From Candidatus Fraserbacteria bacterium (GTDB lineage Bacteria > Bipolaricaulota > Bipolaricaulia > RBG-16-55-9): DNA of 64,000 nt. The stretch's first letter is position 1; each line of letters starts with the position of its first letter. The stretch lies in the NCBI GenBank assembly GCA_037442925.1, contig JBBIPG010000002.1:1-64000 (forward strand). The letters are read 5' to 3'. Positions 46,391 to 61,407 of the stretch are shown piece after piece. The notes beneath the pieces are model-generated. The model saw only the letters and a program-made list of their open reading frames with translations, was not told the DNA's origin and ran no database searches. The position numbers were made by a program, and so were the translations under genes.

Positions 46391-46455
46391 ATGATCTAGG
46401 CTAGCCCCATGGATGATCTTCGTCATTTTACATCGCTATACGCAACACATACAAT
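46391..46455 (+). promoter_or_regulatory. Promoter of the coo/acs operon: TTTACA-17-TACAAT with upstream FNR-like box ATGAT-CTTC-GTCAT (46413-46426) and a half-site at 46391
   Basis: -35 at 46427-46432, -10 at 46450-46455, 17-nt spacer. Confidence 0.7.
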
Positions 46456-46465
46456 ACAGACACGT

Positions 46466-47233
46466 ATGAAGATCGTTATATCTGGCAAGGGTGGTGTGGG
46501 CAAGACAACCGTGTGTGCACTCCTTGCCAAAGAGGCGGCGAGCAAGGGCTATCACGTGCTGGCTGTGGATGCTGATCCCAGCCCCACGCTGGCAGCGACC
46601 TTGGGAGTCTGTCAGGAACCCACGCCGCTCATCGAGTTCCGCGATCTGATTGAGGAACGCTTAGGCTCACTCGAGGGGTTCCTCCGGCTCAACCCGAAAG
46701 TGGACGACATCCCGGAGCGGTTTGCCATGGAGAAGGACGGAGTCAAGATCCTCGTCATGGGATCGATTCAGCAGGGTGGAGAAGGATGTGCCTGCCCTCA
46801 GAACACGTTCCTAAAGAGCCTCCTACAGCATATAGCTTTCGAGCGGGAGGATTGGGTCTTCATGGATCTGGAGGCCGGTTTGGAGCCCTTAGGCCGGGCC
46901 ACCGTGCGTGGCTTCGATGTGCTACTCGTGGTCGTAGAGCCAGATAGCCGCAGTCTCACCACGGCCGGCCGAATCCACAACTTGGCTCATGACCTGGGGC
47001 TAACACACATCTATGCCATAAACAACAAGATTCGGGAAGCGGCGGATGTAGCGTTCGTTGAAGATCGGCTGCCTCGAGGAGTCACCTTACTCGGTGCCCT
47101 GCCCTATAGCGAACCGATTCGCCGAGCTGGCCGTGATGGGTCACTCCATAAGGACCCACTGGTTCAACAAGAAATCAGAAGAATCCTGGAGCAGCTGGAA
47201 GCTTCACACGGCATGGAGAGAGTTTCAGCCTAG
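46466..47233 (+). CDS. cooC: CooC-family nickel insertion ATPase
   Basis: GKGGVGKT, DADP, GCACP, DLEAGLE. Confidence 0.9.
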   Translation: MKIVISGKGGVGKTTVCALLAKEAASKGYHVLAVDADPSPTLAATLGVCQEPTPLIEFRDLIEERLGSLEGFLRLNPKVDDIPERFAMEKDGVKILVMGSIQQGGEGCACPQNTFLKSLLQHIAFEREDWVFMDLEAGLEPLGRATVRGFDVLLVVVEPDSRSLTTAGRIHNLAHDLGLTHIYAINNKIREAADVAFVEDRLPRGVTLLGALPYSEPIRRAGRDGSLHKDPLVQQEIRRILEQLEASHGMERVSA

Positions 47234-47251
47234 CCAAGAAAGGAACGGAAC

Positions 47252-47767
47252 ATGGAGCGACTCTTCTGTGACCCACGAAAGTGCGTGGGCTGCCATTCGT
47301 GCGAACTGGCCTGCGCGCTGGAGCATACCCCCTCCAAAGATCTATTCCGGGCCGTCCTCACCGGGGAGTCGGGTCCGCCGCGTCGGCGCGTCCAGACGGT
47401 AGGGGACCGGCCCTATCGGGTAGCGATTGGTGGCGTTGTTCTCTCACTGGGCTGCCATCACTGCGATCCTGCCCCTTGTGTCGATGCGTGCATCGCTGGG
47501 GCGATGCATAAAGAAAACGGCGAGACGATCTGCGATCTGGACAAGTGCGTAGGTTGCTGGATGTGCGTGATGAGCTGCCCGTATGGGGCCATCACGCCTC
47601 ACGTCAAAGCACTGAAGTGTGATCTCTGCCCCGATCGTCGAGACAAGACCGGGCGATCTCGCTACGCTTGCATCGAGGCCTGCCCTACGGAGGCCCTCTT
47701 TGCCGGGACGTTTGAAGCATTCGAGAAGACCCTATCTCAGCCAATTGTTCAGGGGGTGGCCCGATGA
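47252..47767 (+). CDS. cooF: CooF-like 4x[4Fe-4S] electron-transfer protein
   Basis: CVGCHSCELAC, CHHCDPAPCVDAC, CVGCWMCVMSCP, KCDLC...ACIEACP. Confidence 0.8.
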   Translation: MERLFCDPRKCVGCHSCELACALEHTPSKDLFRAVLTGESGPPRRRVQTVGDRPYRVAIGGVVLSLGCHHCDPAPCVDACIAGAMHKENGETICDLDKCVGCWMCVMSCPYGAITPHVKALKCDLCPDRRDKTGRSRYACIEACPTEALFAGTFEAFEKTLSQPIVQGVAR

Positions 47768-49092
47768 GATACGTCATCATCGGTGCTTCCGCGGCAGGAG
47801 TCAGTGCGGCAGAGACGCTGCGAAAGCATGAGCCCGCTGCTGAGATCGTCATGATCTCCGATGAACAACTCATATATTCCAAGCCGCTTCTCTCGTACTA
47901 CTTGGCCGGGAAGCTAAAGGAAGAGCAACTGCTCTGGCGCGCGCCGGATTTCTTCGAGCGCAACCAGATTGAAGCGTTGCTGGGAGTCCGCGCCAGCGAA
48001 TTAGCACCCCAGCAGAGCAAAGTTGTGCTCAAAGATGGCCGCGAGGTTTCGTACGATAGGCTTCTCTTGGCAAACGGGGCTTCTCCGAGATTTGCGGCGC
48101 TCGAAGGCCGCGAGAAGGCCGGGCTTTTTGGTCTGCGCAAGCTCGAAGATGCGAGGAGCATTTTGGCGCTACTGGCACGATCCCGGCGGGCGGTCGTGCT
48201 CGGCGGGGGCTTAGTCGGTCTTAAGGTCGCGGCGGCTCTCAAAGAGCGGGGTGTTGAAGTGACTGTCTTGGTGGATTCGCCTCATGTCCTCTCGCAAATG
48301 CTTGACGAGACCTCTGCGCGTATCTTCGAAACAGTGTTCGAGCAGAACGGTGTGCGCATCTTGTGCAAAGCTCGGCCAGTAGCGCTTACCGGAGGCGAGC
48401 GGGTTACCGGTGTCAAGCTAGCATCTGGCGAAGAATACCCGGCAGATCTGGTCGTTGCCGGTAAGGGCGTGGATGCTAACCTCGATCTGGCCAAAAGTGC
48501 TGGCATCGCCTGCGATTATGCGATCTTGGTGGATGAGTATTGCCGCACGAATGTCGAGAATATCTACGCAGCGGGTGACGTGGCGCAAACGCGCGATGTG
48601 CTTCGGGGTGAACCGTGGGTGAACGCGCTCTGGCCCTGTGCCGTCGAGCAAGGGCGCATCGCTGCTCTCAACATGTTAGGTCAGAAGACGGCGTATCGGG
48701 GTTCCATGCGCATGAACAGCGTCCAGTTCTTTGAGTTGCCTGTGATCTCAGCGGGATTGGCTGTCTTGACGCCGGGCCCGCTGGGAGGGCGATCCGGCGA
48801 GCATGACAAGACGATCGAGACGCGACCCGCTCCAGCAGTCTACCGCAAGATCTTCTTAAAAGACGACACCATCGTGGGGTTCGTCCTCATCGGCGGTGAG
48901 CGGGACCTGGAAGCCGCAGGACTGCTGCGCATCTTGATGGAGCGTCGCATGGGGGTCGCAGGAATGGAGGAGGAGTTACTGGAGATAGGACCGGACCTGG
49001 GGCGCTTATTGCCACGGATCGTGCAAGACCGTGAGCGATTCGTCGAGCGAGAATTTCAAGAACTCATCCAAACGGTGAAGGTGGGGGTGTGA
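47764..49092 (+). CDS. FAD-dependent NAD(P) oxidoreductase (CooF-associated FNOR type)
   Basis: IIGASAAG, GGGLVG, YAAGDV. Confidence 0.85.
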   Translation: MRYVIIGASAAGVSAAETLRKHEPAAEIVMISDEQLIYSKPLLSYYLAGKLKEEQLLWRAPDFFERNQIEALLGVRASELAPQQSKVVLKDGREVSYDRLLLANGASPRFAALEGREKAGLFGLRKLEDARSILALLARSRRAVVLGGGLVGLKVAAALKERGVEVTVLVDSPHVLSQMLDETSARIFETVFEQNGVRILCKARPVALTGGERVTGVKLASGEEYPADLVVAGKGVDANLDLAKSAGIACDYAILVDEYCRTNVENIYAAGDVAQTRDVLRGEPWVNALWPCAVEQGRIAALNMLGQKTAYRGSMRMNSVQFFELPVISAGLAVLTPGPLGGRSGEHDKTIETRPAPAVYRKIFLKDDTIVGFVLIGGERDLEAAGLLRILMERRMGVAGMEEELLEIGPDLGRLLPRIVQDRERFVEREFQELIQTVKVGV

Positions 49093-49096
49093 CGAT

Positions 49097-52000
49097 ATGT
49101 CAAAAATCATCGCGTCGGCGGCCATCCGCGGTGCACAACACTACTTCTCGGAGGCGGAGACCCAACTCAAACAAGCCATAGCGACCTACAAACCGGAGAA
49201 GAAGATCGCCTTTCCCAACACGGCGTATCATTTGCCTCTCATTTTTGCACTCACAGGACTTAAGGTCGAGACTCTTAAAGACTGTGAAGAAGCATTGAAC
49301 CATGCCCGCTCTTTGCTTCCGCCATTGCCGGCGGATTCCCTGTGGCTGCCGTATTTGGGTGATGCACTGGATGCGGGCATTGCCACACTGATCGCGGAAG
49401 AGATCATTGAAGCGCTCAAGTATCTCGACCCGAGCTACAAGCCGGATCCGCCGTGGCTGGGCTTCACGGACGACTCGATCCTGAGAACTCAGGGAATTAA
49501 GTTGGTAGATGGGAGGATGCCGGGCTTCGCGGCCTGCGTGGGGGCGCTTCCCACCAATGGAGACGCTGTGGAACTGATTCGAGCCCTGCAGGAGCGAAGC
49601 ATTCTTGTCTTCATTGCAGGCAGCTCCAATGGGCGCTCGATGGCCGAGCAATTGAACGAGGAGGGCATCGAGTTGGGCTGGGACACCTACGTCGTCCCCT
49701 ATGGCAAGGAGATGAGCGCTGCAGTCTATGCTCTCAATTTCGCCGCTCGTGCGGCCATGACCTTCGGCGGGATCAAACCCGGCAGCTTTGAAGCGGCAAG
49801 AAAAATCTTGCTCTACAACAAAGAGCGCGTCTTTGCGTTTGTGCTCGCACTGGGAGCTGACCCGAACGTCAATGGGAACGGCCAGCTGCTAACGGACGAG
49901 AAATATGCGACGGCTGCGGGTGCGATCAACTTTGGCTTTCCTGTCATTGCCGATGTGAACATTCCTCAGATCCTTCCCCGAGGCATCTGCACGTATGAGC
50001 ACGTCGTCTCGGGAGTCTCGCTGGACAAGATCATCCAGAAGGCCGTCGAGGTGCGTGGCCTCAAACTCAAGCTGGCTCAGATTCCCATTCCGGTGCCCTA
50101 CGGCGCAGGCTTCGAGGGCGAGCGCGTGCGCAAGGAGAATCTCTATGTCGAGTTCGGAGGCAAGTACAGCACAGCGTTTGAGCTCCTGCGAGCGCGACCG
50201 ATGGATGAAGTGGAAGATGGGAAGATCGAACTCATCGGACCCGATTTGGATCAAGCCGAAGAAGGTGGGGCCATGCCCCTAGCCGTACTGGTCGATGTTG
50301 CTGGGCGCAACCTCAAGGCGGACTTTGAGCCCGTGCTGGAGAGAAGAATCCATCACTTCATCAGTTGCATCAATGGTGTGATGCACATCGGACAGCGAGA
50401 CATCCCCTGGGTGCGCCTGAGCAAAGAAGCGTACGAGAAAGGCTTTCGCTTGAAGCATTACGGCGAAGTCCTCGTTGCCAAATTCAAAGACGACTTTGGT
50501 GCCATCGTCGACAAAGTGCAGGTGAAGCTCGTGACAGATCAGGCACAAGTCGATCAACTGCTGAAAGAAGCGCGAGAGATCTACCGACAACGCGACGAGC
50601 GCGTCATGGGTATGAAGGACGAAGACGTAGATACCTTCTACAGCTGCATCTTGTGTCAGAGCTACGCGCCCAATCACGTCTGCATCGTGACGCCTCAACG
50701 CTTGGGCCTTTGTGGTGCGTATACCTGGCTCGACTGCGGCGCGTCCTACGAGATGGACCCGCACGGCCCCAACAAGCCGGTCACTAAGGGCATCTGTCTC
50801 GATCCTGTCTTAGGGGAGTGGCAAGGGGTCAACGAGTACGTGCGCGTTGCCTCCAACGGCAATCTCGAAAGGGTCTCGATGTACTCGATCATGCAGGACC
50901 CCCAAACGTCGTGCGTTGTTGGGGAGACCGAACTGATCATCGACGGCGTTCCCACACCCCTTGGGGAGTTCATCGAGCAGCACCGGGGGGGCGAGCGCTA
51001 CAGAGATTCAGCGGCCTTGACGCTGCGCGAAGGCAAAGCCCGCCTGGAGCCGCTGGTAGCTCTGCAGCGCTTCGATGCTCCTGAGGAACTGATTCGATTA
51101 GAAACGAAGTCCGGTGCTCAGCTGGTCTTGACGAAAGATCACGAGCTGGCAGTCGATCGGCCGGACGGCATGCGATGGGTTCGCGCGGACCAAATCAAAG
51201 CGGGCGAGCGCCTGATCGCGCTCAAGCACTTGCGTCTGCCGGGACAGCTTCCCGCCGTGGTTGAGCTTTTGCCTAAGGACTTCCGATCTCGGAGGCAGCT
51301 GCCGAAGTCTTTAAGCCCTGAACTCTTCTATCTGCTGGGCTTGATCGCCAGTGACGGCTGCATCACACCGCGCGGCCGCTATGAGCGCATCATCCATTTC
51401 GTCAACACTGATGAAGAGCTTGTCCAGCAATTCACCGGGATTCATAAAGAGCTCTTCCCCGACTGCCATCTGGCGAGAAAGGTCAAATCGGCCAAGCCGA
51501 CGACGCTGCGGGGACGCACGATCAAGCCTACTAGGCCCTGCTTCCAGCTTTCTAGCAACAATTCAGTGTTGGGTTTGCTGGCAGAGCGCTTGGGGCTTCG
51601 CGTCGGTAGTCAAGGGCACTGGGAGCTGGGACGGCTGGCGAGCTTACCGGAGGCTCACATCGCAGCCTTCTTGGCAGGGGTCTTCGACGGCGACGGCAGC
51701 GTCCGCTTACGTCAATATGCGGGAAAGTGGGACATTGCTGAGGGGTATGTGTGCATCGCCGACGAGCGGGCCGCGCGCCATCTGCAGCTCCTGTTGCGGC
51801 GGCTGGGCATTATAGGAAACCTCAACAAATCGGGATCGGTCTGGAAGATCGTGATGCACGGGGCGAATCTCCGAAAGTTCGCTGAGGTCATCCCGGCCAA
51901 GCACCCGGAGAAGCAGGCGGTCTTGGCGAGCGTTCGTCAGCTGCCGGGCAACGGCAGGCTCGACAAGACGCAAGAAGAAGTGCTGCCGTATTATGTGGGG

Positions 52001-52696
52001 CAGGCCTTGGCCCAGCTGCCCGCCTGCCACGAGGTTCTTAGCCCCAGCACGCTCTATTACTACCAGTCAGGCCGCTCGCGACCTGTAGCAGCCAATGTCC
52101 AGAAAGTGCTCGAAGCTGCTCCGGAGACTGGGCTGCTACGAGCCGCTCTGGAGACAGACTACTTCCTGGACACCGTGGTGACAGTGGAGACGGTGAGCAA
52201 CACTGGGAAAGATCGCTATGAGCGCGTCTATTGCTTGACTCTTGCTGACATCCACTGCTTCTTCGCCAACACCATCCTGATCAAGAACTGCGGGTGCTTC
52301 GAGTGCATCGTTGCTGTGTTGCCTGAGACCAACGGGGTGATGGTCGCCAGCCGCGAATATCAGGGTGAGACGCCCATCGGCATGACCTTCTCGACGATGG
52401 CCGGCGAGGTCGGCGGCGGGGTGCAGACGCCGGGCTTTTTGGGCGTGGGCAAGCTCTATCTGACGAGCGAAAAATTTATCAGCGCTGAGGGCGGGATCAG
52501 GAGATTAGTGTGGATGCCTAGCGAGCTTAAAGAAGAGATCAAAGAGAGACTCCAAAAGCGCTTGGAGGAGATCGGGATGCCCGAACTCTTCGACAAGATC
52601 GCCACTGAAAAAGACGCCACGACGACGGACGAGTTGATGGCATTCTTGCAGAAAGTGGGACACCCGGTGCTCGAGATGGAAGCGATCATCGCCTAA
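49097..52696 (+). CDS. acsB: Acetyl-CoA synthase (bacterial AcsB) precursor containing an intein
   Basis: FPNTAYHLP, CILCQSYAPNHVC...GLCGA [4Fe-4S] ligands, TS|CGCFE Ni motif; 740 aa after removing the insert. Confidence 0.95.
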   Translation: MSKIIASAAIRGAQHYFSEAETQLKQAIATYKPEKKIAFPNTAYHLPLIFALTGLKVETLKDCEEALNHARSLLPPLPADSLWLPYLGDALDAGIATLIAEEIIEALKYLDPSYKPDPPWLGFTDDSILRTQGIKLVDGRMPGFAACVGALPTNGDAVELIRALQERSILVFIAGSSNGRSMAEQLNEEGIELGWDTYVVPYGKEMSAAVYALNFAARAAMTFGGIKPGSFEAARKILLYNKERVFAFVLALGADPNVNGNGQLLTDEKYATAAGAINFGFPVIADVNIPQILPRGICTYEHVVSGVSLDKIIQKAVEVRGLKLKLAQIPIPVPYGAGFEGERVRKENLYVEFGGKYSTAFELLRARPMDEVEDGKIELIGPDLDQAEEGGAMPLAVLVDVAGRNLKADFEPVLERRIHHFISCINGVMHIGQRDIPWVRLSKEAYEKGFRLKHYGEVLVAKFKDDFGAIVDKVQVKLVTDQAQVDQLLKEAREIYRQRDERVMGMKDEDVDTFYSCILCQSYAPNHVCIVTPQRLGLCGAYTWLDCGASYEMDPHGPNKPVTKGICLDPVLGEWQGVNEYVRVASNGNLERVSMYSIMQDPQTSCVVGETELIIDGVPTPLGEFIEQHRGGERYRDSAALTLREGKARLEPLVALQRFDAPEELIRLETKSGAQLVLTKDHELAVDRPDGMRWVRADQIKAGERLIALKHLRLPGQLPAVVELLPKDFRSRRQLPKSLSPELFYLLGLIASDGCITPRGRYERIIHFVNTDEELVQQFTGIHKELFPDCHLARKVKSAKPTTLRGRTIKPTRPCFQLSSNNSVLGLLAERLGLRVGSQGHWELGRLASLPEAHIAAFLAGVFDGDGSVRLRQYAGKWDIAEGYVCIADERAARHLQLLLRRLGIIGNLNKSGSVWKIVMHGANLRKFAEVIPAKHPEKQAVLASVRQLPGNGRLDKTQEEVLPYYVGQALAQLPACHEVLSPSTLYYYQSGRSRPVAANVQKVLEAAPETGLLRAALETDYFLDTVVTVETVSNTGKDRYERVYCLTLADIHCFFANTILIKNCGCFECIVAVLPETNGVMVASREYQGETPIGMTFSTMAGEVGGGVQTPGFLGVGKLYLTSEKFISAEGGIRRLVWMPSELKEEIKERLQKRLEEIGMPELFDKIATEKDATTTDELMAFLQKVGHPVLEMEAIIA
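50912..52288 (+). mobile_element. 459-aa intein with LAGLIDADG homing endonuclease
   Basis: Block A CVVGET, block B TKDHEL, YLLGLIASDG and FLAGVFDGDG, block F VYCLT..IHCFFAN, block G ILIKN followed by Cys+1. Confidence 0.95.
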
Positions 52697-52704
52697 AGGA
52701 GCTT

Positions 52705-54045
52705 GTGATGGCCAAACTCACGGGAATAGAGATCTATAAACACCTGCCCAAGACTAACTGTGGTGACTGTAATTTCCCTACGTGTATGGCCTTCGCCATG
52801 CAAGTGGCCGCCAAGAAAGTGGGTCTCGAGCAGTGCCCACATGTCTCAGCCGAGGCGAAAGCGGCCCTTTCCGAAGCCCAAGCCCCACCGATGCGTGTGG
52901 TCACGATCGGGGCGGGAGATCGTGCGCTCAAAGTCGGCGGCGAGACGGTGTTGTTCCGACACGACGAGAAATTCCATCGCCCGACGGTCATTGCCATTCG
53001 CGTGCGGGATGATCTGCCGGAAGCGGAGCTGGCTCAGCGTATCGAGAAGATCAATCAGATCCAGTTCGTGCGCGTCGGACAGAAGATCGCCGTCAATGCC
53101 ATCGCCGTCGAGCAAACGAACAGTGGGAAGTTTGTGCCCTCCGTGAAGCTTGTCAGCGAAAGATCCCCACTCGTGCTCATCTTGATCAGCTCTGATCCTC
53201 GGGCTCTCACGGCTGCTCTTGAGATCTGTGCGGATCGACGCCCATTGATCCACGCGGCGACAAAAGAGAACTGTAAAGAACTGGCAGCGCTGGCAAAGCA
53301 GTTCAACTGCCCGTTGGCCGTCCGTGCCACATCTCTTGAAGAGCTGGCTGAACTTACTCACGAGATGAAAGCCTCAGGCGTCGAGGATCTCGTCCTGGAC
53401 CCGAACGTACAGGGAATGGCTGAGGGACTGACCAAACTGACACAACTCCGTCGTCTGGCCCTAGAGAAGACGTTTAGACCCTTAGGATTTCCCACCATGA
53501 CGATCGTTCCTGGCAGTGACCCGTTCATGGATACGGCTCAGGCGGCGGCGTACATCTGCAAGTACGCCAGCATCATCGTGATGGATGGCTGCGAACGCTG
53601 GCAGCTGTTGCCCATTTTGACAGCGCGCCAGAACATCTACACCGACCCGCAAGTGCCCAACGCTGTCGAGGCCAAGCTCTACAAAGTGGGCGAGCCAGGA
53701 TCTCAATCACCCGTACTGGTTACCACAAACTTCGCGCTCACCTACTTCACCGTCGAAGGCGAAGTGGAGAACAGCCGCGTCCCGGCCTACATCGCCGTGG
53801 TGGATACCGGGGGATTGGGTGTGCTCAATGCCTACGCAGACGACAAGCTCACAGCGGAGGGAATCGTCAAGACCGTCAAGGCCTCTGGAATCATGGATCA
53901 AGTTTCCCATAAGAAACTCGTCATCCCCGGATTAGTCGCCGTGCTCAAGGGCGAGATCGAGGACGAAGGAGGCTGGGAAGTGTTAGTTGGTCCGGAGGAA
54001 GCAGCGGGCTTGCCCGCCTACTTGCGAAACGATTGGAAAGCGTAA
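52705..54045 (+). CDS. acsC: Corrinoid Fe-S protein large subunit
   Basis: LPKTNCGDCNFPTCMAFA, GETVLFRH, RQNIYTDPQ, TTNFALTY. Confidence 0.95.
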   Translation: MMAKLTGIEIYKHLPKTNCGDCNFPTCMAFAMQVAAKKVGLEQCPHVSAEAKAALSEAQAPPMRVVTIGAGDRALKVGGETVLFRHDEKFHRPTVIAIRVRDDLPEAELAQRIEKINQIQFVRVGQKIAVNAIAVEQTNSGKFVPSVKLVSERSPLVLILISSDPRALTAALEICADRRPLIHAATKENCKELAALAKQFNCPLAVRATSLEELAELTHEMKASGVEDLVLDPNVQGMAEGLTKLTQLRRLALEKTFRPLGFPTMTIVPGSDPFMDTAQAAAYICKYASIIVMDGCERWQLLPILTARQNIYTDPQVPNAVEAKLYKVGEPGSQSPVLVTTNFALTYFTVEGEVENSRVPAYIAVVDTGGLGVLNAYADDKLTAEGIVKTVKASGIMDQVSHKKLVIPGLVAVLKGEIEDEGGWEVLVGPEEAAGLPAYLRNDWKA

Positions 54046-54061
54046 AGGCAGGGGACTCGAG

Positions 54062-55972
54062 ATGCCCAAAGTCGTCTTTCACCCAGATGACGTGAGCGTC
54101 GAAGTCGAGCGCGGGGTGACGCTGCAAGCCGCCGCGAAGGCAGCCGGTGTTGAGCTGGCCAGCATCTGCGGCGGGGATGGCATCTGCGGTCGCTGCCGAG
54201 TGATCGTGCGAGACGGCAACATCCAGGCTTCTCCCACTACCTTGCTCAGCCGCGACGAGATCCAAAGAGGGTATGTACTCGCGTGCCAGACGAAGATCAC
54301 CGGAGACGTCGAAATCGAAGTGCCCCCAGAAACACGCACGGAAGAGGGGCAGATTCTCATCGACATCGACGCCCAACGCTTCCGGGCCCTCTATCAGGAG
54401 GAGAAGATCTCTTTTCGGCATGAGCCCTTGGTGCAAAAGCTCTACGCGGAGTTGCCTCGGCCCACGCTGCAAGATAATCTGGCGGACCACCAGCGGCTCT
54501 ACCGCGAAATCCGCCGCCACAAGAACTACCAGATCATGCAGACGGGCCTCAAGGTCTTACAGACTCATCCCAAGCTCTTTCGCACGAGTCGCTGGAAGAT
54601 CACGGCTACCCTGGGTATGCGCGGCGGGACCATCGAAGTGCTCCAAGTCGAGGGCGGCAATACCGCAGAGCGCAACTACGGCATCGCCGTGGACGTGGGA
54701 ACTTCCACCGTCGTCGCTCACTTGCTCGATCTGAATACGGGCAAGACGGTGGATGCCGAAGCCATGTACAACTCACAGCGTGCGTACGGCGAAGAAGTGA
54801 CACGGCGCATCATCTATGCAGAACGCGGCGGACTGGACCAGCTGCAAAAGACAGTCGTCAACGATATCAACAACTTGATCACGGCACTTGTGGCGCGCAA
54901 CCAGATTGCACAACACGACTGTCTCACGGTTCTTTGCGCCGGCAACACGACGATGATGCATCTCGTATTGGGTCTGGACCCCACCTACATCCGCCGCGAT
55001 CCCTACGTTTCCTGTTCGACGGCGCCTCCGCCGGTGCGAGCGGCCGAAGTGGGAATTCAGATCAACCCTCGCGGGCTTCTGTACTGCCTGCCGGCCATCG
55101 GGGGCTGGGTGGGCGGAGATGTGACTGGTGGGATTCTGGCGACGGGACTTCACGAGTCGGATGAGACCGTGATGCTGATCGATGTCGGCACCAACGGAGA
55201 GATCGTCATCGGCAATAGAGAGTGGATGGTGGCCTGTTCGGCCTCCGCCGGTCCGGCCTTTGAGGGCTCGGGAGTGCAGTGCGGCATGAAAGCAAGCCGC
55301 GGCGCGATTGAGCGCGTACAGATCTCATCGGACGGAAACGTGCTCTATAAGAGTGTGGGCAACGTCAAACCCAAAGGCATCTGTGGCTCGGGGCTCATCG
55401 ATCTGGTCGCGGCGCTTTTCACAGCTGATCTCATTGATCGGTCCGGAGCGCTGCAGCCGGAAGCCAGCCCCAGAGTCCGTGAGCGCAACGGCTTGCTCGA
55501 GTTCGTTGTCGTTCCCACCCAGCGCTCTGGCACCGGCAAGGATATCGTCATCACTCAAGCCGACATCGAGAATCTACTGAGTGCCAAAGCCGCCATCTAC
55601 GCCGGGGCACACATCTTAATCAAATCGCTCGATCTCGACTTCAACGATATCGAAAGAGTCTTTTTAGCCGGAGGCTTCGGGAACTATCTGGACCGCGAGA
55701 AGGCGATCACGATTGGCCTGATTCCCGATCTACCCCTGGAAAAGATTCGATTTGTCGGTAACACGTCCATCATCGGGGCCAAACTGGCGCTGCTCTCTCA
55801 AGAAGCGTTCGAGCGCAGCTACGAGATCGCGAGGAACGTGACGTATTATGATCTCATTAGCTTTCCGCACTATTACGAGGAGTTTCTCGCGGCGAAATTC
55901 CTGCCGCATACGGAGCTGGAACGTTTTCCATCTGTGCAGGAGAGACTGAAATCAAAAGCGAGGATCTTCTAG
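54062..55972 (+). CDS. acsV: Reductive activator of CoFeSP (RACo/AcsV; [2Fe-2S] + ASKHA ATPase)
   Basis: CGGDGICGRC, DVGTST, DVGTNGE, AGPAFEG, GICGSG. Confidence 0.88.
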   Translation: MPKVVFHPDDVSVEVERGVTLQAAAKAAGVELASICGGDGICGRCRVIVRDGNIQASPTTLLSRDEIQRGYVLACQTKITGDVEIEVPPETRTEEGQILIDIDAQRFRALYQEEKISFRHEPLVQKLYAELPRPTLQDNLADHQRLYREIRRHKNYQIMQTGLKVLQTHPKLFRTSRWKITATLGMRGGTIEVLQVEGGNTAERNYGIAVDVGTSTVVAHLLDLNTGKTVDAEAMYNSQRAYGEEVTRRIIYAERGGLDQLQKTVVNDINNLITALVARNQIAQHDCLTVLCAGNTTMMHLVLGLDPTYIRRDPYVSCSTAPPPVRAAEVGIQINPRGLLYCLPAIGGWVGGDVTGGILATGLHESDETVMLIDVGTNGEIVIGNREWMVACSASAGPAFEGSGVQCGMKASRGAIERVQISSDGNVLYKSVGNVKPKGICGSGLIDLVAALFTADLIDRSGALQPEASPRVRERNGLLEFVVVPTQRSGTGKDIVITQADIENLLSAKAAIYAGAHILIKSLDLDFNDIERVFLAGGFGNYLDREKAITIGLIPDLPLEKIRFVGNTSIIGAKLALLSQEAFERSYEIARNVTYYDLISFPHYYEEFLAAKFLPHTELERFPSVQERLKSKARIF

Positions 55973-56755
55973 ATGGCTTTCACCATTGGGGTTGCCGGTA
56001 AAGGCGGCGTGGGGAAGACGACCCTGGCAGGTTTGATCGCACGATTGCTGTTGGAGCGCGGCGATGGGCCCGTTTTGGCGATTGACGCCGATCCCAACAC
56101 CAACTTTCATCAAGTTCTGGGGCTCCACGTGGAACAGACCATCGGCGAACTGCGCGAAGAGACTCTCAAGAAAATAAAAGACTTACCAGCTGGCATCTCC
56201 AAGGATCAGTATCTCGAGTACGGCCTGCACCAGTGTCTCGTCGAGGACAATGGCATCGATCTATTGGCCATGGGACGAGGCGAGGGTCCCTTCTGCTACT
56301 GTGCCGTCAACCACGTACTGCGACGCTACATGGATCTTCTGGCCAAGAACTACAAGTACATCGTCATGGACAACGAGGCTGGCCTGGAACATCTCTCACG
56401 ACGAACCACACAAGATGTTGATGTCTTGCTCATAGTGAGCGAATGCTTTCCCGTGGCACTTCAGGCTGCCGCCAGAATCAGCAAGATCGCCGATGAACTC
56501 AAATTACGCATCGGTCAGAGATTCCTCGTGCTAAACCATGTGAACGACGGAACCCTGTCTGGGCCGGCCCAGGAAGCTCTACAAGAGAGCATTGGGCAGG
56601 CGGGGCTCATGCTCATCGGGGAGATCCCCCGCGATGAGGCGATTCGGCGCCTCAGCGTGGAAGGCAAACCGCTGAGCGAACTACCCGCCTCCTCGCCGGC
56701 CAAGTCAGCCGTGAAGGCGATTCTTGAAAGAGTGCTGGAGAAAGGAGGCCCCTGA
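55973..56755 (+). CDS. acsF: Second CooC-family ATPase (AcsF/CooC2)
   Basis: GKGGVGKT, DADPN, CYC, DNEAGLEHLSR. Confidence 0.82.
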   Translation: MAFTIGVAGKGGVGKTTLAGLIARLLLERGDGPVLAIDADPNTNFHQVLGLHVEQTIGELREETLKKIKDLPAGISKDQYLEYGLHQCLVEDNGIDLLAMGRGEGPFCYCAVNHVLRRYMDLLAKNYKYIVMDNEAGLEHLSRRTTQDVDVLLIVSECFPVALQAAARISKIADELKLRIGQRFLVLNHVNDGTLSGPAQEALQESIGQAGLMLIGEIPRDEAIRRLSVEGKPLSELPASSPAKSAVKAILERVLEKGGP

Positions 56756-57735
56756 TGCCGGTAGCCATTCCCGATGTGAAGAAGACTTGGACGAACGCGA
56801 TCAACGTGGTGACACTGGGGGCCACGCGCGAAGAGGGGGGGACCCGCACGTCGAAGGTGACGGTAGGCGGCGCGACTTCGCTCTCCTTCCATCATTTTGA
56901 GGGCACGATGCCCCACCCACCTGCGATCGCCATGGAGGTCTGGGATATTGCCCCCACCGACTGGCCCCAGATTCTGACAGAACCCTTCGCGGATGTGCTG
57001 AACGACCCCGGGCTCTGGGCCAAAAAGTGCGTCGAGCAGTACGGTGCCGAGTTGATCTGTCTGCGTCTTATGGGGTGTGATCCCATTCGTGGCAATCGCG
57101 GCCCTCAAGAGGCCGTGCCAGCGGTGAAGCGAGTACTCGCGTCCGTGGGTGTGCCACTCATCATTTGGGGTACGGGCAACGATGAGAAAGATAATGAGAT
57201 CTTCCCCGCTGTGGCGGAAGCCGCAGCGGGTGAGAATTGCTTATTAGGCACGATCACGGAAGACAACTACAAGACGCTCGTTGCCGTCTGCACGGCGTAC
57301 AAACATAAGCTGATCGCCGAGTCGCCTTGTGATGTCAACATTGCGAAGCAAGTGAACATCCTTGCCACAGATATGGGCTTCAAGCCGGAAGACATAGTGA
57401 TCTATCCCACGAGCGCGGCATTGGGCTATGGACTCGAATACGTCTATTCCATCATGGAGCGGGCCAGGCTCGCGGCGTTACGCGGCGACAAGATGCTCTC
57501 GCAACCCATGATCTGTGATATTGGCATTGAGACATGGGGCGTGAAAGAAGCCAAGGCAAGTGAGCAAGAACTGCCCGAATGGGGTGAGCAGAAGGAGCGC
57601 GCGCCGCTGTGGGAAGCGACAACGGCATACATCTATTTGCTGACGGGGGCAGATCTTCTTGTGCTGCGCCATCCACGGGCTGTCGCCAGCGTGCGGCAAG
57701 CGATCCAGCAACTCATGGGAGCCGGAGGCGGTTAG
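56755..57735 (+). CDS. acsD: Corrinoid Fe-S protein small subunit
   Basis: DVNIAKQVN, LGYGLEYVYSIMER, LRHP. Confidence 0.93.
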   Translation: MPVAIPDVKKTWTNAINVVTLGATREEGGTRTSKVTVGGATSLSFHHFEGTMPHPPAIAMEVWDIAPTDWPQILTEPFADVLNDPGLWAKKCVEQYGAELICLRLMGCDPIRGNRGPQEAVPAVKRVLASVGVPLIIWGTGNDEKDNEIFPAVAEAAAGENCLLGTITEDNYKTLVAVCTAYKHKLIAESPCDVNIAKQVNILATDMGFKPEDIVIYPTSAALGYGLEYVYSIMERARLAALRGDKMLSQPMICDIGIETWGVKEAKASEQELPEWGEQKERAPLWEATTAYIYLLTGADLLVLRHPRAVASVRQAIQQLMGAGGG

Positions 57736-57736
57736 C

Positions 57737-58540
57737 ATGATCCTCATTGGCGAGCGAATCAACGGCTCTTTCAAAGACGTCGGGGCTGCCATCAAAGAGA
57801 GGAACAAAGAACCCATTCAAGACTGGGCAAAGAAGCAGACCGAAGCGGGAGCGGATTATCTCGATGTCAACTTGGGCGCGGTATCGAAGAATCCCGCTGA
57901 CTTCGCCTGGCTCATTCAGACCGTTTGTGAAGCTGTGCCCACGCCGCTTTCGATCGATTCGCTCAAGCTCGATCTGGTGCGCGCGGGACTGGAAGCTTAT
58001 AGAGAATTCGGAGGCAGGCGACCTGTCATTATCAACAGCACGACCGCCGAAGAGAGCAAACTGATGCCGTTAGTCGAGTTGGCGGTTCAGTACAACTCAG
58101 GTCTCATTGGCGTCGTGATGGATGAGCGTGGCAGCCCGCAAGATATTGACCGACGAGTTGAGCTGGGAGCGAAGATCTTTGCCATCGCGAGCGAAGCGGG
58201 TCTACCTCCGGAACGAGTCTATCTCGACCCCATCGTCATGCCGGTCAAGTTTATGCAAGAGCAGGGCAAGAACGTCCTAGAAGCCATAAGGCAGTTCGCG
58301 ATGATCTCCGACCCTCCGCCGCATATCTCTATCGGGCTCAGTAATATCTGCTCCAAAGCCCAAGAACGCTCGCTCATCACTCGGACGTTTCTCGTCATGG
58401 CCATGGCGGCTGGCTGCGATGCCGCAATCTGCAATGTGATGGACGCGGAACTCGTAAACGCTGTAGCCACAGCGGAGTTGATTCTCAACAAAGAAATATA
58501 CAGCGACAGCTACTTGAAGGCATATCGAAAGCGGGGCTGA
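57737..58540 (+). CDS. acsE: Methyltetrahydrofolate:CoFeSP methyltransferase
   Basis: MILIGERING, YLDVN, SIDS, IINS, GLSN. Confidence 0.92.
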   Translation: MILIGERINGSFKDVGAAIKERNKEPIQDWAKKQTEAGADYLDVNLGAVSKNPADFAWLIQTVCEAVPTPLSIDSLKLDLVRAGLEAYREFGGRRPVIINSTTAEESKLMPLVELAVQYNSGLIGVVMDERGSPQDIDRRVELGAKIFAIASEAGLPPERVYLDPIVMPVKFMQEQGKNVLEAIRQFAMISDPPPHISIGLSNICSKAQERSLITRTFLVMAMAAGCDAAICNVMDAELVNAVATAELILNKEIYSDSYLKAYRKRG

Positions 58541-58541
58541 A

Positions 58542-59441
58542 ATGAGACTTACAGGTGTACATCTGCTCCTGACGTACGAGTGCAATCTCGAGTGCGATCA
58601 TTGCTTCGTCTGGGGCAGTCCCTGGCAACGTGGCACGATGACTCTCAAGACCATCCGTGAGATCCTACAGCAAGCTAAGGATCTTGGAACGGTAGAGTGG
58701 ATCTACTTTGAGGGTGGCGAACCCTTTCTCTACTACGCCACTCTGCTCAAAGGGGTGCAAGTGGCTGCACGCCTGGGCTTTCAAGTGGGGATCGTATCGA
58801 ATGGCTACTGGGCCACCGATGCGCAAGATGCTCTAGAGTGGCTAAGACCCTTCGCGGGTCTTGTGCAAGACTTATCGATCAGTAGCGACCTCTATCACTG
58901 GAAGGAGAGCCTCAGCCAGCAAGCCAAGCACATCTGCTCCGCGGCGGGAAAGCTAGACATCCCCATGCAAATCCTCCACATCGCGGCACCCGAAGTCGCG
59001 GATGCCCCATCCGCGGTGGGACAACTTCCGCCGGGTACGTCGAAGGTCATGTATCGTGGGCGTGCGGCAGAGAAGTTGGCAAACAAGACTCCACGCCGAC
59101 CTTGGACAGAGTTCACGGCTTGTACGCATGAGGACCTCCGTGAGCCAGGGCGGGTACACATCGACCCCTTTGGGAATGTCCACATCTGCCAGGGGATCGC
59201 GCTGGGTAACGTCTACCAAACACCGCTGAGGAGCATGTGCAGGAAGTACGATCCGGATACTCACCCGATTGCCGGTCCGTTGCTTTCGGGCGGTCCCGCA
59301 GAGCTTGTGCGCCGCTACAAGCTGGCTCACGAAGCACGATGTGCCGATTCATGCCATCTGTGCTATGAGGCCCGTCGGGCTCTGCGCAGTCGCTTTCCGG
59401 ATGTCCTAAAACCGGATCAGATGTATGGAGTGGTGCCGTGA
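58542..59441 (+). CDS. Radical SAM protein with Cys-rich C-terminus
   Basis: CNLECDHC, GGEPF, CQG...CADSCHLC. Confidence 0.85.
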   Translation: MRLTGVHLLLTYECNLECDHCFVWGSPWQRGTMTLKTIREILQQAKDLGTVEWIYFEGGEPFLYYATLLKGVQVAARLGFQVGIVSNGYWATDAQDALEWLRPFAGLVQDLSISSDLYHWKESLSQQAKHICSAAGKLDIPMQILHIAAPEVADAPSAVGQLPPGTSKVMYRGRAAEKLANKTPRRPWTEFTACTHEDLREPGRVHIDPFGNVHICQGIALGNVYQTPLRSMCRKYDPDTHPIAGPLLSGGPAELVRRYKLAHEARCADSCHLCYEARRALRSRFPDVLKPDQMYGVVP

Positions 59442-59499
59442 ACGTGCTAGGTACAGCAGTCGAAAGACTCGCGTTGACCATCTTGGGGAAGGGGGAGTC

Positions 59500-61407
59500 A
59501 TGAAAGAAAAAAGCGTAGATCGAGCCTCACAAGAGATGCTCGAGCACGCAAAGCAAGAGCATCTGGAGACAGCTTGGGATCGCTGGGAACTTCAACAACC
59601 CCAGTGCGGCTTCGGACAACTGGGTTTATGTTGCCGGATCTGCAATATGGGTCCGTGTCGCATTGACCCGTTTGGGAGCGGACCCAAGCGCGGCGTATGT
59701 GGTGCTGACGCCGATACGTTCGTTGCTCGCCATCTAACCCGCATGATCGCTGCCGGGACGGCAGCGCACTCGGACCACGGGCGCGATGTGGCACATACGC
59801 TGCTGCTGGCTGCGGAGGGCCATCGCGGCTATCGCATCAAAGATCCACGGAAGCTGCGTAAAGTCGCTGCCGAGTTTGGCATTGGGGCAGACACGAAGAG
59901 CGATGCAGAGATTGCCAAGGCGTTGGCAGAAAAGGCGTTGGCGGAGTTCGGCCAACAAGAGGGAGAACTGACACTAACTCGACGTGCTCCCAAGGCGCGG
60001 CAAGAGCTCTGGCGCAAGCTAGGAATCATGCCGCGCGGGATCGACCGCGAAGTCGTGGAGATGATGCACCGCACGACGATGGGGGTAGACACAGATTATA
60101 AGAACATCTTGCTCCAAGGCATGAGGACATCGTTGGCTGATGGCTGGGGTGGCTCGATGCTCGCCACAGACATTCAAGACATTCTCTTTGGGACTCCAAT
60201 GCCTCTACGTTCCCGCGTGAATCTGGGAGTGCTAAAGAAGGACGAGGTCAACGTCGTCGTTCATGGCCACGAACCCATCTTGTCAGAGATGCTCGTGGTA
60301 GCCAGCCGTGACCCAGAGCTGGTGAAGTTAGCTCAGCAAAAGGGCGCTCGCGGAATCAATATCACCGGCATCTGCTGCACGGCCAATGAGATTCTCATGC
60401 GCCACGGCATCCCGATTGCAGGCAACTTCTTGCAGCAGGAGCTGGCACTGGCCACGGGAGCCGTGGATGCCATGATTGTGGACGTGCAATGTGTCATGCC
60501 CGCTCTGGCGAGTCTCGCTCAGTGCTTCCACACAAAGCTCATTGCCACCTCACCCAAGGCGAAATTCCCCAATACAGACTTTGTGGAGTTCCGCGAGGAA
60601 CGCGCCATTGAGGCAGCGAAAGAGATCATCCAGCGCGCGATAGAGAACTACCCGAATCGCGAGCCGCGTCGCATGCAGATCCCGGATGCCTCGATGGATC
60701 TGATCGCTGGCTTCACTTCTGAGTCTGTATTTCGATTCTTAGGCGGACGCTATCGAGCTACCTACCGGCCGCTTAACGATGCCATCATGGACGGGAGGCT
60801 CCGCGGAGCCGTCGGCGTCGTCGGCTGCAACAACCCCAATATCACCCATGACTGGGGGCACCTGACGCTCACCAAAGAACTCCTGAAGAACGATGTACTA
60901 GTCGTGTCAAGTGGCTGCTCAGCCATCGCGGATGCCAAGTTCGGCCTGCTTAGGCCGGAGGCGGCCCACAATTACGCCGGACCCGGCTTGCGTGAGATCT
61001 GCGAGACGGTAGGCATACCGCCGGTGCTCCACGTGGGAGCCTGCGTGGATAACTCACGCATCTTGACGACGCTGATTGAGATCGTGGGTGAGGGTGGCTT
61101 AGGAGACGACTTCGCGAAACTGCCTGTGGCGGGATCTGCACCTGAGTGGATGAGCGAAAAGGCCGTGGCCATCGGGTTCTATTTCGTCGCTTCCGGAGCT
61201 CTGGTGCACTTTGGGACACCCCAGCCGATCTACGGCAGCAAGAACGTGACAGAGTTCTTGACGAAAGATGTCGAGACGCTTGTGGGTGGCAAGTTCGCCT
61301 TCGAGCCTGATCCACAAAAGGCGGCCAAACTGATCCTCGAGCATCTAGATCGCAAGCGGGCCGACTTGAAGCTTCGAGAACCGATGTATACTCCTGTGTA
61401 CGCGTAG
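59500..61407 (+). CDS. cooS: Anaerobic Ni-CO dehydrogenase catalytic subunit
   Basis: CGFG..GLCCRICNMGPC, HSDH, HGHEP, GICCT, GCNN, GACVDN; GGGGAG RBS before ATG 59500. Confidence 0.95.
   Translation: MKEKSVDRASQEMLEHAKQEHLETAWDRWELQQPQCGFGQLGLCCRICNMGPCRIDPFGSGPKRGVCGADADTFVARHLTRMIAAGTAAHSDHGRDVAHTLLLAAEGHRGYRIKDPRKLRKVAAEFGIGADTKSDAEIAKALAEKALAEFGQQEGELTLTRRAPKARQELWRKLGIMPRGIDREVVEMMHRTTMGVDTDYKNILLQGMRTSLADGWGGSMLATDIQDILFGTPMPLRSRVNLGVLKKDEVNVVVHGHEPILSEMLVVASRDPELVKLAQQKGARGINITGICCTANEILMRHGIPIAGNFLQQELALATGAVDAMIVDVQCVMPALASLAQCFHTKLIATSPKAKFPNTDFVEFREERAIEAAKEIIQRAIENYPNREPRRMQIPDASMDLIAGFTSESVFRFLGGRYRATYRPLNDAIMDGRLRGAVGVVGCNNPNITHDWGHLTLTKELLKNDVLVVSSGCSAIADAKFGLLRPEAAHNYAGPGLREICETVGIPPVLHVGACVDNSRILTTLIEIVGEGGLGDDFAKLPVAGSAPEWMSEKAVAIGFYFVASGALVHFGTPQPIYGSKNVTEFLTKDVETLVGGKFAFEPDPQKAAKLILEHLDRKRADLKLREPMYTPVYA

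Follow-up and report, generated by a model that had tools for sequence, protein, structure and literature searches.

The sole acsB gene of a Candidatus Fraserbacteria genome, located in the 64,000-nucleotide stretch of DNA analysed here (the window), is interrupted by a LAGLIDADG intein of 459 amino acids. We consider it very probable that this element splices itself out of a 1199-residue precursor to yield a 740-residue acetyl-CoA synthase (AcsB), and that it likely persists as a selfish homing element. Most known inteins reside in ATPases or in proteins of replication and repair. Acetyl-CoA synthase is the key enzyme of the Wood-Ljungdahl pathway, the oldest known route of carbon fixation.

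The precursor gene (49097..52696, forward strand, as are all features below) is an open reading frame of 1199 codons plus stop, with the Pfam domains CODH_A_N, CdhC and ACS_CODH_B_C and a PDB match to the Moorella enzyme at E=2.5e-203. It is present as a single copy in a genome that is 94% complete, both PF19436 matches being the two halves of this one gene. The frame reads ...MQDPQTS up to the intein, CVVGETEL...FANTILIKN through it and CGCFECIV beyond it. The 605-residue N-extein (49097..50911) ends with QDPQTS, whose Ser codon (50909-50911) is followed by Cys1 of the intein (50912-50914), while the terminal Asn of the intein (52286-52288) is followed by Cys+1 (52289-52291), the first residue of the 135-residue C-extein (52289..52693). 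An earlier note on this DNA had placed a 1377-nt insert (459 amino acids) at 50912..52288, and this proved accurate to the base: conceptual joining of the exteins gives a 740-residue AcsB with TSCGCFEC (...MQDPQTSCGCFECIVAV).

The insertion point coincides with the catalytic centre of the enzyme. By phmmer against the PDB, precursor residues 12-606 align with residues 28-595 of Moorella thermoacetica acetyl-CoA synthase (1oao_C), and residues 1064-1197 with residues 594-728. Therefore, the Cys-Gly-Cys that opens the C-extein (52289-52297) corresponds to Moorella Cys595, Gly596 and Cys597, and the in-frame insert falls between the equivalents of Ser594 and Cys595. The cysteines aligned with Moorella Cys506, Cys509, Cys518 and Cys528 are all present in addition to Cys-Gly-Cys; the latter three residues follow the intein, and the A-cluster ligand set becomes contiguous only after conceptual splicing. 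Cys506, Cys518 and Cys528 have Fe-S roles. Cys509, Cys595 and Cys597 are the nickel ligands of the A-cluster in the parts of the source from which we take the ligand roles (PMC10299331), and of these, Cys595 and Cys597 coordinate the proximal as well as the distal nickel. The intein thus sits directly before Cys-Gly-Cys with a nickel ligand as its Cys+1, as had been proposed, and the assignment of this motif to the distal nickel holds, but not to the distal nickel alone. The operon around acsB is otherwise complete, with acsC, acsV, acsD, acsE and cooS intact, and the exteins show a dN/dS of 0.04-0.05 between intein-bearing genomes. Together with the single gene copy and the retention of the splicing domain in mini-inteins (see below), these sequence features indicate that the host acsB must still work.

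Residues, Pfam and a structural model agree with the initial reading of the insert as an intein with blocks A, B, F and G and two LAGLIDADG motifs. The N-terminal lobe of the Hint (splicing) domain comprises intein residues 1-104 (50912..51223) and contains the block A Cys1 (50912-50914) as well as Thr74 (51131-51133) and His77 (51140-51142) of the block B TxxH. The endonuclease core (residues 136-326; 51317..51889) is matched by Pfam LAGLIDADG_3 in two stretches (E=4e-18, above the family cut-off) and forms two helix-plus-sheet repeats in the model. Its first motif, LGLIASDG, holds Asp148 (51353-51355), which is at least 90% conserved, and its second, FLAGVFDGDG, holds Asp259-Gly-Asp261-Gly (51686-51697), of which D259, G260, D261 and G262 are all invariant. 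The helices modelled beyond the core (residues 332-413; 51905..52150) are probably an extra DNA-binding module. The C-terminal Hint lobe, supported by sequence and model (residues 417-459; 52160..52288), contains block F (VYCLTLADIHCFF; position F:4 is Cys441, 52232-52234) and block G (ILIKN), which ends with the penultimate Lys458 and Asn459 (52286-52288). All 44 aligned homologues share C1, T74, H77 and N459, and no cysteine inside the intein besides Cys1 is invariant among them. In the AlphaFold model of the intein (pLDDT 94.2, pTM 0.93), beta strands at residues 7-104 and 417-458 build a split Hint domain with both termini in one domain. The best Foldseek matches are intein homing endonucleases, namely TliVMA (7qss; E=2e-23, TMq 0.73), PI-PkoII (2cw7), PI-PfuI (1dq3), PhoVMA (7qst) and PI-SceI.

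The AcsB intein family is large and is not described in the searched literature. When databases were checked for inserts between TS and CGC, as suggested in the earlier note, 101 of 120 proteins among the matches listed carried an intein at this site with both junctions exact, and their hosts, again among the matches listed, belong to Bipolaricaulota, Chloroflexota, Omnitrophota and Actinomycetota. This agreement far exceeds what chance would produce. Cys1, TxxH, the terminal Asn and Cys+1 occur in all 101 of these listed inteins. The same site also harbours nine mini-inteins of 145-224 aa, which have lost the endonuclease and retained the splicing domain. A second insertion site, which we call site a (site b being that of the window intein), lies between IL and CQS at the codon of Cys520 (50654..50656), the equivalent of Moorella Cys509 (scilcq at 516-521 versus scvlcq at 505-510). 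Site a is empty in the window, and in relatives such as P0001 and P0108 it is filled by an intein of about 544 amino acids, located 85 residues upstream of the window insertion. From about residue 360 onwards, this precise 544-residue insertion is the only difference between P0001 and the window protein. The site-a inteins are related to the window intein (about 24-28% identity for P0108-P0112), are likewise of LAGLIDADG type with an A-cluster ligand as the +1 cysteine of the same host protein, and share the signature VYN...H...KN, which ends at the junction and in which the penultimate residue is Lys in 24 of 26 sequences, Arg in one and Gln in one. The earlier note was not aware of an AcsB intein at this site. 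This stands for the searched literature, where the portions covered, including a 2015 census of inteins with two of its three supplements, contain no link between inteins and acetyl-CoA synthase; the window intein is, however, no singleton.

The window intein has the hallmarks of class 1, including Cys as first residue (44 of 44 aligned homologues and 101 of 101 same-site inteins), the block B TxxH and a terminal Asn followed by Cys+1 (each 101 of 101), and the Hint fold. Its active site differs in the assisting residues. A penultimate His is usual, but not universal, in this role. At this position (G:6), the window intein has Lys458, and the same-site family has Lys in 86, Ala in 13, Glu in one and His in one (n=101). 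Position F:4 is Cys in the window and Asn in 95, Cys in six and Asp in none of the 101; position F:13 is His in the window, with 67 His, 33 Asn and one Tyr in the family. Asp and His, respectively, are the commonest residues at these block F positions in inteins, according to the sections used of PMC4031507. The combination of Asn at F:4 and penultimate Lys is common to the site-b (101) and site-a (26) AcsB inteins across phyla and is absent from their nearest non-AcsB relatives; for its conservation in more than 100 sequences, we found no description in the searched literature. The non-canonical Lys and the Cys or Asn at F:4 suggest that Asn cyclisation in AcsB inteins is not the textbook reaction. 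We also considered class 3, members of which have no N-terminal nucleophile, use Cys at F:4 as the nucleophile instead and carry a conserved Trp/Cys/Thr triplet at set positions. This assignment was rejected: the window intein has Cys at F:4 but Cys1 is present, 95 of the 101 relatives have Asn at F:4, and Leu and Ile are found two residues past His77 and directly before Lys458, respectively. PMC4031507 describes class 3 by Cys at F:4 plus "two other positions".

The absence of the penultimate His and of the block F Asp, together with a Pfam Intein_splicing score slightly below the cut-off (E=1.4e-8; 35.1 versus 35.8 bits), could mean that the intein is unable to splice and that acsB is a disrupted pseudogene in a decaying operon. 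We regard this as extremely unlikely, as the frame is open over all 1199 codons, the neighbouring acs genes are intact, the exteins evolve at the low dN/dS given above, and the Asn/Lys signature is conserved at both sites and across phyla. Splicing without a penultimate His has reportedly been described by Chen, Benner and Perler in 2000 and, for Ssp DnaE, by Sun et al. in 2005 (both cited in PMC4031507), and a missing His would hence be compatible with splicing.

A splicing-competent intein would follow the standard class 1 route. Cys1 (precursor residue 606) would form a thioester with Ser605, the N-extein would be transferred to Cys+1 (residue 1065), Asn459 would cyclise to release the intein, and an S-to-N shift would restore the Ser-Cys peptide bond. 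Judging by the insertion site, the precursor would lack an intact A-cluster loop; binding of the two nickels by Cys+1 and Cys+3 would be possible only after splicing and the precursor would therefore be inactive. The free intein, in turn, would cut intein-free acsB within the conserved sequence ...CAGACGTCG/TGCGGNTGCTTCGAG..., and repair would copy the intein into the gene.

The presence/absence pattern of the intein fits such a selfish homing element. Among 26 relatives with a readable site, the intein is present in four and absent from 22, the latter including members of the same genus with the same operon. Within one genus of 14 genomes, two carry this intein, two carry the site-a intein and ten are uninterrupted at this site, and phylum-wide 4 of 184 genomes match the intein. 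The three intein rows require three changes on a tree built from the flanking exteins, although the tree has 219 columns only and its starred branches force only at least two. Metagenome contigs from run X1 and its study-mate X6 skip exactly from 50911 to 52289, that is 1377 nt, and stem from relatives that are about 10% diverged rather than from the same strain, the two runs belonging to one study. They also give independent confirmation of the insert boundaries at the DNA level. In run X1, the intein-free contigs have summed depths of 176 and 117, and the intein-bearing contig has a depth of 17.

The intein might instead be a resident that is inherited only vertically, its endonuclease being inactive in this copy and the element being tolerated as precise loss is rare. 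Homologues whose flanks are more similar to those of the window also tend to have a more similar intein (Spearman 0.38 between the two identities, n=88), which suggests that much of the inheritance is vertical; the GC content (59.8% versus 56.5 and 57.8%) does not indicate recent import and fits the host, and the nine mini-inteins document that endonucleases are lost at this site. However, both LAGLIDADG motifs retain their acidic residues, with D259 and D261 invariant, and the endonuclease part (precursor residues 731-1030) has a dN/dS of 0.08-0.11 and is constrained as strongly as the splicing lobes. The patchy distribution within one genus and the changes on the extein tree also speak against strict residence, as does P0016, whose intein is nearer to that of the window (60% identity) than its exteins are (55%). 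We therefore consider an immobile intein quite unlikely and favour continued homing. The dS of the intein (1.0-1.5) is lower than that of the N-extein (1.7-2.4) in the pairs G000-G021 and G000-G016 (G000 being this genome), the two genome pairs with enough extein; the contrast is weak because the values are near saturation.

Among solved inteins, the closest in architecture are TliVMA (7qss/7qsu), PhoVMA (7qst), PI-PkoII (2cw7), PI-PfuI (1dq3) and yeast PI-SceI (1vde), in all of which the same Hint domain is split by a single-chain endonuclease with two LAGLIDADG motifs. Sequence identity to these is only 13-19%, the best match is weak (7qsu, E=1.3e-4), and their hosts are an ATPase, polymerase or reductase, whereas AcsB is a carbon-fixation metalloenzyme. 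The penultimate Lys and the Cys or Asn at F:4 further set the AcsB inteins apart from the usual His and Asp (PMC4031507, in the sections used). The SufB intein of Mycobacterium tuberculosis likewise resides in a host from metal-cluster biology and has a Cys+1 (PMC8891592, in part). Unlike AcsB, SufB is a scaffold for cluster assembly. To our knowledge, its intein is not inserted at a catalytic metal ligand. A SufB intein is also encoded in the genome studied here (L004) and has Asn at F:4 and a canonical His-Asn end.

The earlier note proposed that oxidation, nitrosation or metal binding could gate the pathway. In such a conditional switch, splicing would stall when Cys1, Cys+1 or Cys+3 is modified or binds metal, production of active acetyl-CoA synthase would be confined to reducing, metal-balanced conditions, and the host would keep the intein for that benefit. 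The three cysteines, two of which are metal ligands, are close to one another, the mini-inteins retain the splicing domain, and the derived Asn/Lys signature of both AcsB inteins, not seen in their nearest non-AcsB relatives, points to adaptation to the host context. Precedent comes from the Mycobacterium smegmatis DnaB intein, in which zinc reversibly blocks splicing via the initiating, catalytic cysteine (PMC7360933, in the part consulted), and from further examples of conditional splicing in SufB and DnaB described in the portions of the literature covered. The DnaB effect is experimental and concerns a replicative helicase, whereas gating of AcsB would be an analogy to it. Against a switch, 22 of the 26 readable relatives have the same operon without the intein, and this patchiness implies that the intein is not needed to regulate the pathway in this lineage. 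In addition, the intein has no invariant cysteine other than Cys1, purifying selection acts on the endonuclease as expected of a mobile element, and the signature drops a carboxylate and an imidazole beside Cys+1, which, if anything, may lower metal sensitivity. We consider a switch retained for the host's benefit rather unlikely. Unlikely, too, though conceivable, is that the AcsB inteins form a specialised lineage with splicing coupled to cofactor loading and with an active site rebuilt to suit insertion at metal ligands (at both sites, Asn in place of Asp at F:4 and Lys in place of the penultimate His). These changes could keep Ni, Zn or Fe away from the +1 cysteine and thereby let splicing outrun metal capture, or metal or redox state at Cys1, Cys+1 and Cys+3 could time maturation.

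Acetyl-CoA synthase thus hosts a large intein family, both insertion points of which are catalytic-nickel cysteines. Several database records label these genes as "LAGLIDADG family homing endonuclease" or "hypothetical protein", so that a capacity for the Wood-Ljungdahl pathway can be overlooked among uncultured Bipolaricaulota, Chloroflexota and Omnitrophota. For biotechnology, the family offers putative homing endonucleases aimed at highly conserved acsB sequence. The conserved Asn/Lys pair provides a natural test of Asn cyclisation without the usual Asp and His, and it becomes possible to test directly whether a nickel enzyme matures conditionally on metal or redox state. If such gating were true, the intein would provide the Wood-Ljungdahl pathway with a checkpoint that acts after translation.

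The acsB precursor is encoded on the forward strand by an open reading frame of 1199 residues (49097..52696), and codon positions resolve both ends of its insert. The last N-extein codon (Ser, 50909-50911) is followed directly by the first intein codon (Cys, 50912-50914), and the last intein codon (Asn, 52286-52288) by the Cys-Gly-Cys codons of the host protein (52289-52297; all +). The 1377-nt (459-aa) insert at TS-CGC (the hyphen marks the insertion point) described in the earlier note is therefore exact to the base, and scripted joining of the flanks reproduced the 740-residue AcsB containing TSCGCFE that it had predicted, reading ...QDPQTSCGCFECIV... across the junction. When compared with the PDB by phmmer, precursor residues 12-606 align to residues 28-595 of Moorella thermoacetica acetyl-CoA synthase (1oao_C; E=2.5e-203) and residues 1064-1197 align, in the same match, to residues 594-728. 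The aligned flanks thus meet at 594/595, placing the insertion between Ser594 and Cys595. According to the available sections of one structural account, the proximal nickel is bound by Cys595, Cys597, and the bridging Cys509, and the distal nickel by the Cys595 and Cys597 thiolates plus the backbone nitrogens of Cys595-Gly596-Cys597 (PMC10299331). The proposal that the splicing nucleophile, Cys+1 (the first C-extein residue), is itself a nickel ligand holds, given that it aligns with Cys595; its restriction to the distal nickel does not, since Cys595 binds both metals and the nucleophile is consequently a ligand of each (PMC10299331, sections available).

Domain searches, predicted fold, structural matches, and conserved residues agree that the insert is an intein with a LAGLIDADG homing endonuclease, as first suggested from its motifs. 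Pfam detects LAGLIDADG_3 (4e-18) and Intein_splicing (1.4e-8; at 35.1 bits slightly below the curated cut-off of 35.8). An AlphaFold model built with 44 homologues as input is confident (mean pLDDT 94.2, pTM 0.93) and shows one beta-rich domain formed by residues 1-104 and 417-459, an alpha/beta core (residues 136-326), and a helical region (residues 332-413). Its first Foldseek matches in the PDB are intein endonucleases, namely TliVMA (7qss; E=2e-23, TMq 0.73), PI-PkoII (2cw7), PI-PfuI (1dq3), PhoVMA (7qst), and PI-SceI; by sequence alone, the closest solved chain is marginal (7qsu, E=1.3e-4). Residues invariant in the 44-sequence alignment include Cys1, Thr74, His77, Asp259-Gly-Asp261-Gly, and Asn459, and Asp148 is conserved in at least 90%. 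A group I intron or other DNA-level insertion is ruled out by the in-frame insert, the Hint fold, and the splice-junction residues. The Cys at block position F:4 raised a class 3 mechanism, which is ruled out by Cys1 and by the Asn that 95 of 101 relatives carry at F:4.

To place this element, precursor residues 590-1080 were searched against 5.8 billion proteins, which gave 129 matches among 8000 scored candidates; the best 120 of the 129 were classified. Among these 120 matches listed, 101 (the window's own protein included) carry a complete intein at exactly the same position, hereafter site b, comprising 92 full-length inteins (447-571 aa) and nine mini-inteins (145-224 aa). Five have an uninterrupted TS/A-CGC with an intein elsewhere in AcsB, six are truncated AcsB fragments (four ending ...KN-CGCFEC, one starting the intein, one unresolved), and eight are other host proteins. 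P0095-P0097 are three short CdhC proteins of the archaeal type. The junction occurs in named genome records of Candidatus Bipolaricaulota/Acetothermia, Chloroflexota (Anaerolineae, Caldilineaceae, Chloroflexia), Omnitrophota, and one Actinomycetota MAG; the first of these are closest (78-81%) and therefore name the window's lineage. Six intein-bearing AcsB proteins of 1535-1839 aa (P0066, P0071, P0074, P0076, P0077, P0103) also contain the CdhD/AcsD domain PF03599 and look like AcsB-AcsD fusions. Two records titled 'subunit delta' (P0087, P0092) start inside the intein.

The inserts at TS-CGC for which the earlier note had advised a search are thus numerous in protein databases, and the literature searched on inteins together with acetyl-CoA synthase, the Wood-Ljungdahl pathway, carbon monoxide dehydrogenase, or decarbonylase links no intein to acetyl-CoA synthase. 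No AcsB intein was found in literature on inteins in MAGs and on insertion sites, and the accessible sections of PMC6390638 and PMC3087415 make no link to acetyl-CoA synthase. Among the papers listed for Acetothermia, Bipolaricaulota, or Acetothermum, none mentions an intein. The main text and two of the three supplements of a 2015 intein census contain no acetyl-CoA, CO dehydrogenase, carbon monoxide, CdhC, or decarbonylase entry (PMC4760082).

Local alignment of all matches to the conceptually spliced protein revealed another insertion point, directly behind extein residue 519. This site a (IL-CQS) precedes Cys520, which aligns with the bridging Moorella Cys509; in the window it is empty, and the Cys520 codon lies at 50654-50656. 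Site a is occupied in 26 among the 120 matches listed, by a LAGLIDADG-type intein of ~544 aa (for example P0001, P0013-P0015, P0108-P0112, and loci L029 in genome G015 and L011/L040 in G025). Many of these proteins, 1650-1840 aa long, have inteins at both sites. From about residue 360 to its end, P0001 matches the window protein without a difference except for a precise 544-residue site-a intein; over its first ~340 residues, identity is only about 85%. The mosaic has arisen either through recombination between alleles or through chimeric assembly.

Inteins at the two sites share an unusual active site. Splicing is assisted by Thr B:7, His B:10, and a penultimate His (G:6), and F:4 is most commonly Asp, next Cys, and next Trp, with mostly His at F:13 (PMC4031507, available sections). 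In contrast to these usual residues, AcsB inteins have Asn and Lys instead of Asp and His at F:4 and G:6. The 101 site-b inteins carry Asn (95) or Cys (6, the window clade) and never Asp at F:4, His (67), Asn (33), or Tyr (1) at F:13, and Lys (86), Ala (13), Glu (1), or His (1) at G:6. All 26 site-a inteins read VYNF.., with Asn at F:4, His at F:13, and Lys (24), Arg (1), or Gln (1) at G:6. The inteins matched in seven of the eight nearest non-AcsB hosts have Asp at F:4 and His or Ser at G:6. The 2.07-Mb genome itself holds at least four further LAGLIDADG inteins, in MutS, DnaB, SufB, and the catalytic subunit A of an A/V-type ATPase (L002 on C67, L003 on C33, L004 on C29, L005 on C6), with Asp, Asp, Asn, and Asp, respectively, at F:4 and a canonical His-Asn end in all four. 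To judge from these sequences, the Asn/Lys signature is specific to AcsB inteins, derived, and common to both sites. It may strip metal-binding side chains from the surroundings of a metal-ligand cysteine. In the Ssp DnaE intein, zinc is reportedly bound by Cys+1 together with the His of block B and the Asp of block F.

The distribution of the intein is patchy. acsB is present in 28 of 60 relatives' genomes and site b is readable in 26, four of which have a window-type intein (G013, G016, G021, G026) and 22 of which, same-genus G001 among them, are uninterrupted. One genus is represented by 14 genomes, every one with acsB; two have a site-b intein, two a site-a intein, and ten are uninterrupted at site b. 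At E<=1e-40, the phylum yields only four matching genomes out of 184, the window's own counted. A maximum-likelihood tree of 22 rows, built on 219 flanking extein columns, requires three changes to account for its three intein rows, of which starred branches force at least two. Discordant identities occur as well: the intein of P0016 is 60% identical to the window's and its flanks 55%, and in P0018-P0025 the inteins are 55-58% and the flanks 72-74% identical. GC content and codon usage of the intein are like the host's and so cannot date an import. The host-like GC and the correlation of intein with flank identity (Spearman 0.38, n=88) count against recent import. Between intein-bearing genomes, Nei-Gojobori dN/dS is 0.08-0.12 for the whole intein, 0.08-0.11 for its endonuclease part, and 0.04-0.05 for the N-extein; for the two genome pairs whose N-extein is long, dS is near saturation (intein 0.99 and 1.15 versus N-extein 1.72 and 2.41). 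Contigs of four metagenome runs were placed on acsB. Run X1 has contigs skipping exactly 50911->52289 (summed depth 176 and 117) and an intein-bearing contig of depth 17 with zero differences, and the interval is likewise skipped by a 9345-nt contig of X6, a run of that study. The flanks of the skipping contigs are about 10% diverged; contigs cannot show strain-level polymorphism. Short contigs in hot springs runs X2 and X3 cover 51166-52291 and differ from the window's intein at 0-1 positions; these runs belong to studies other than that of the best-matching run, and their rows, similar in size, may be duplicate filings of a single data set.

acsB is single-copy in this 94%-complete genome and is flanked by genes for two CooC-like ATPases, acsC, acsV, acsD, acsE, and cooS. 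Together with the strong purifying selection on the exteins, this indicates a functional host gene, from which we infer that the intein splices; no RNA run carrying acsB was found among the sequencing runs listed. The acs operon spans 46409-61407. Within the window's family, acsB occurs in one of eight other genomes (G001-G008), hence in the window's genus only, and the AcsB flanks nest within another family's clade (95% identity to G023); either lateral acquisition of the whole cluster or its loss from sister genera may explain this. In G001 (L033), acsB aligns in pieces, suggestive of frameshifts, and its C-terminal domain has an in-frame TGA in G010 (L030) and TAG in G056 (L032), any of which may reflect an assembly error, a pseudogene, or recoding. 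The listed start of acsV (corrinoid activase, 53987-55972) overlaps the acsC end by 59 nt; its NCBIfam match begins at residue 28, and the true start is therefore probably further downstream.

It has been proposed that redox- or metal-dependent splicing acts as a regulatory switch for AcsB. Conditional splicing has experimental precedents in other inteins, such as mycobacterial DnaB, where zinc binds the initiating cysteine (PMC7360933, available sections). However, the patchy distribution, the maintained endonuclease, and the fact that Cys1 is the only invariant cysteine within the intein (44-sequence alignment) all count against a required role, and we consider such a switch improbable. The evidence instead points to a mobile, selfish element. 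The intein in the window is real and its placement exact; as an element it is of a standard type, but its host and insertion site are unusual. It belongs to a large AcsB family, which has a sister intein at another nickel-ligand cysteine and an active-site variant (Asn/Lys) of its own.
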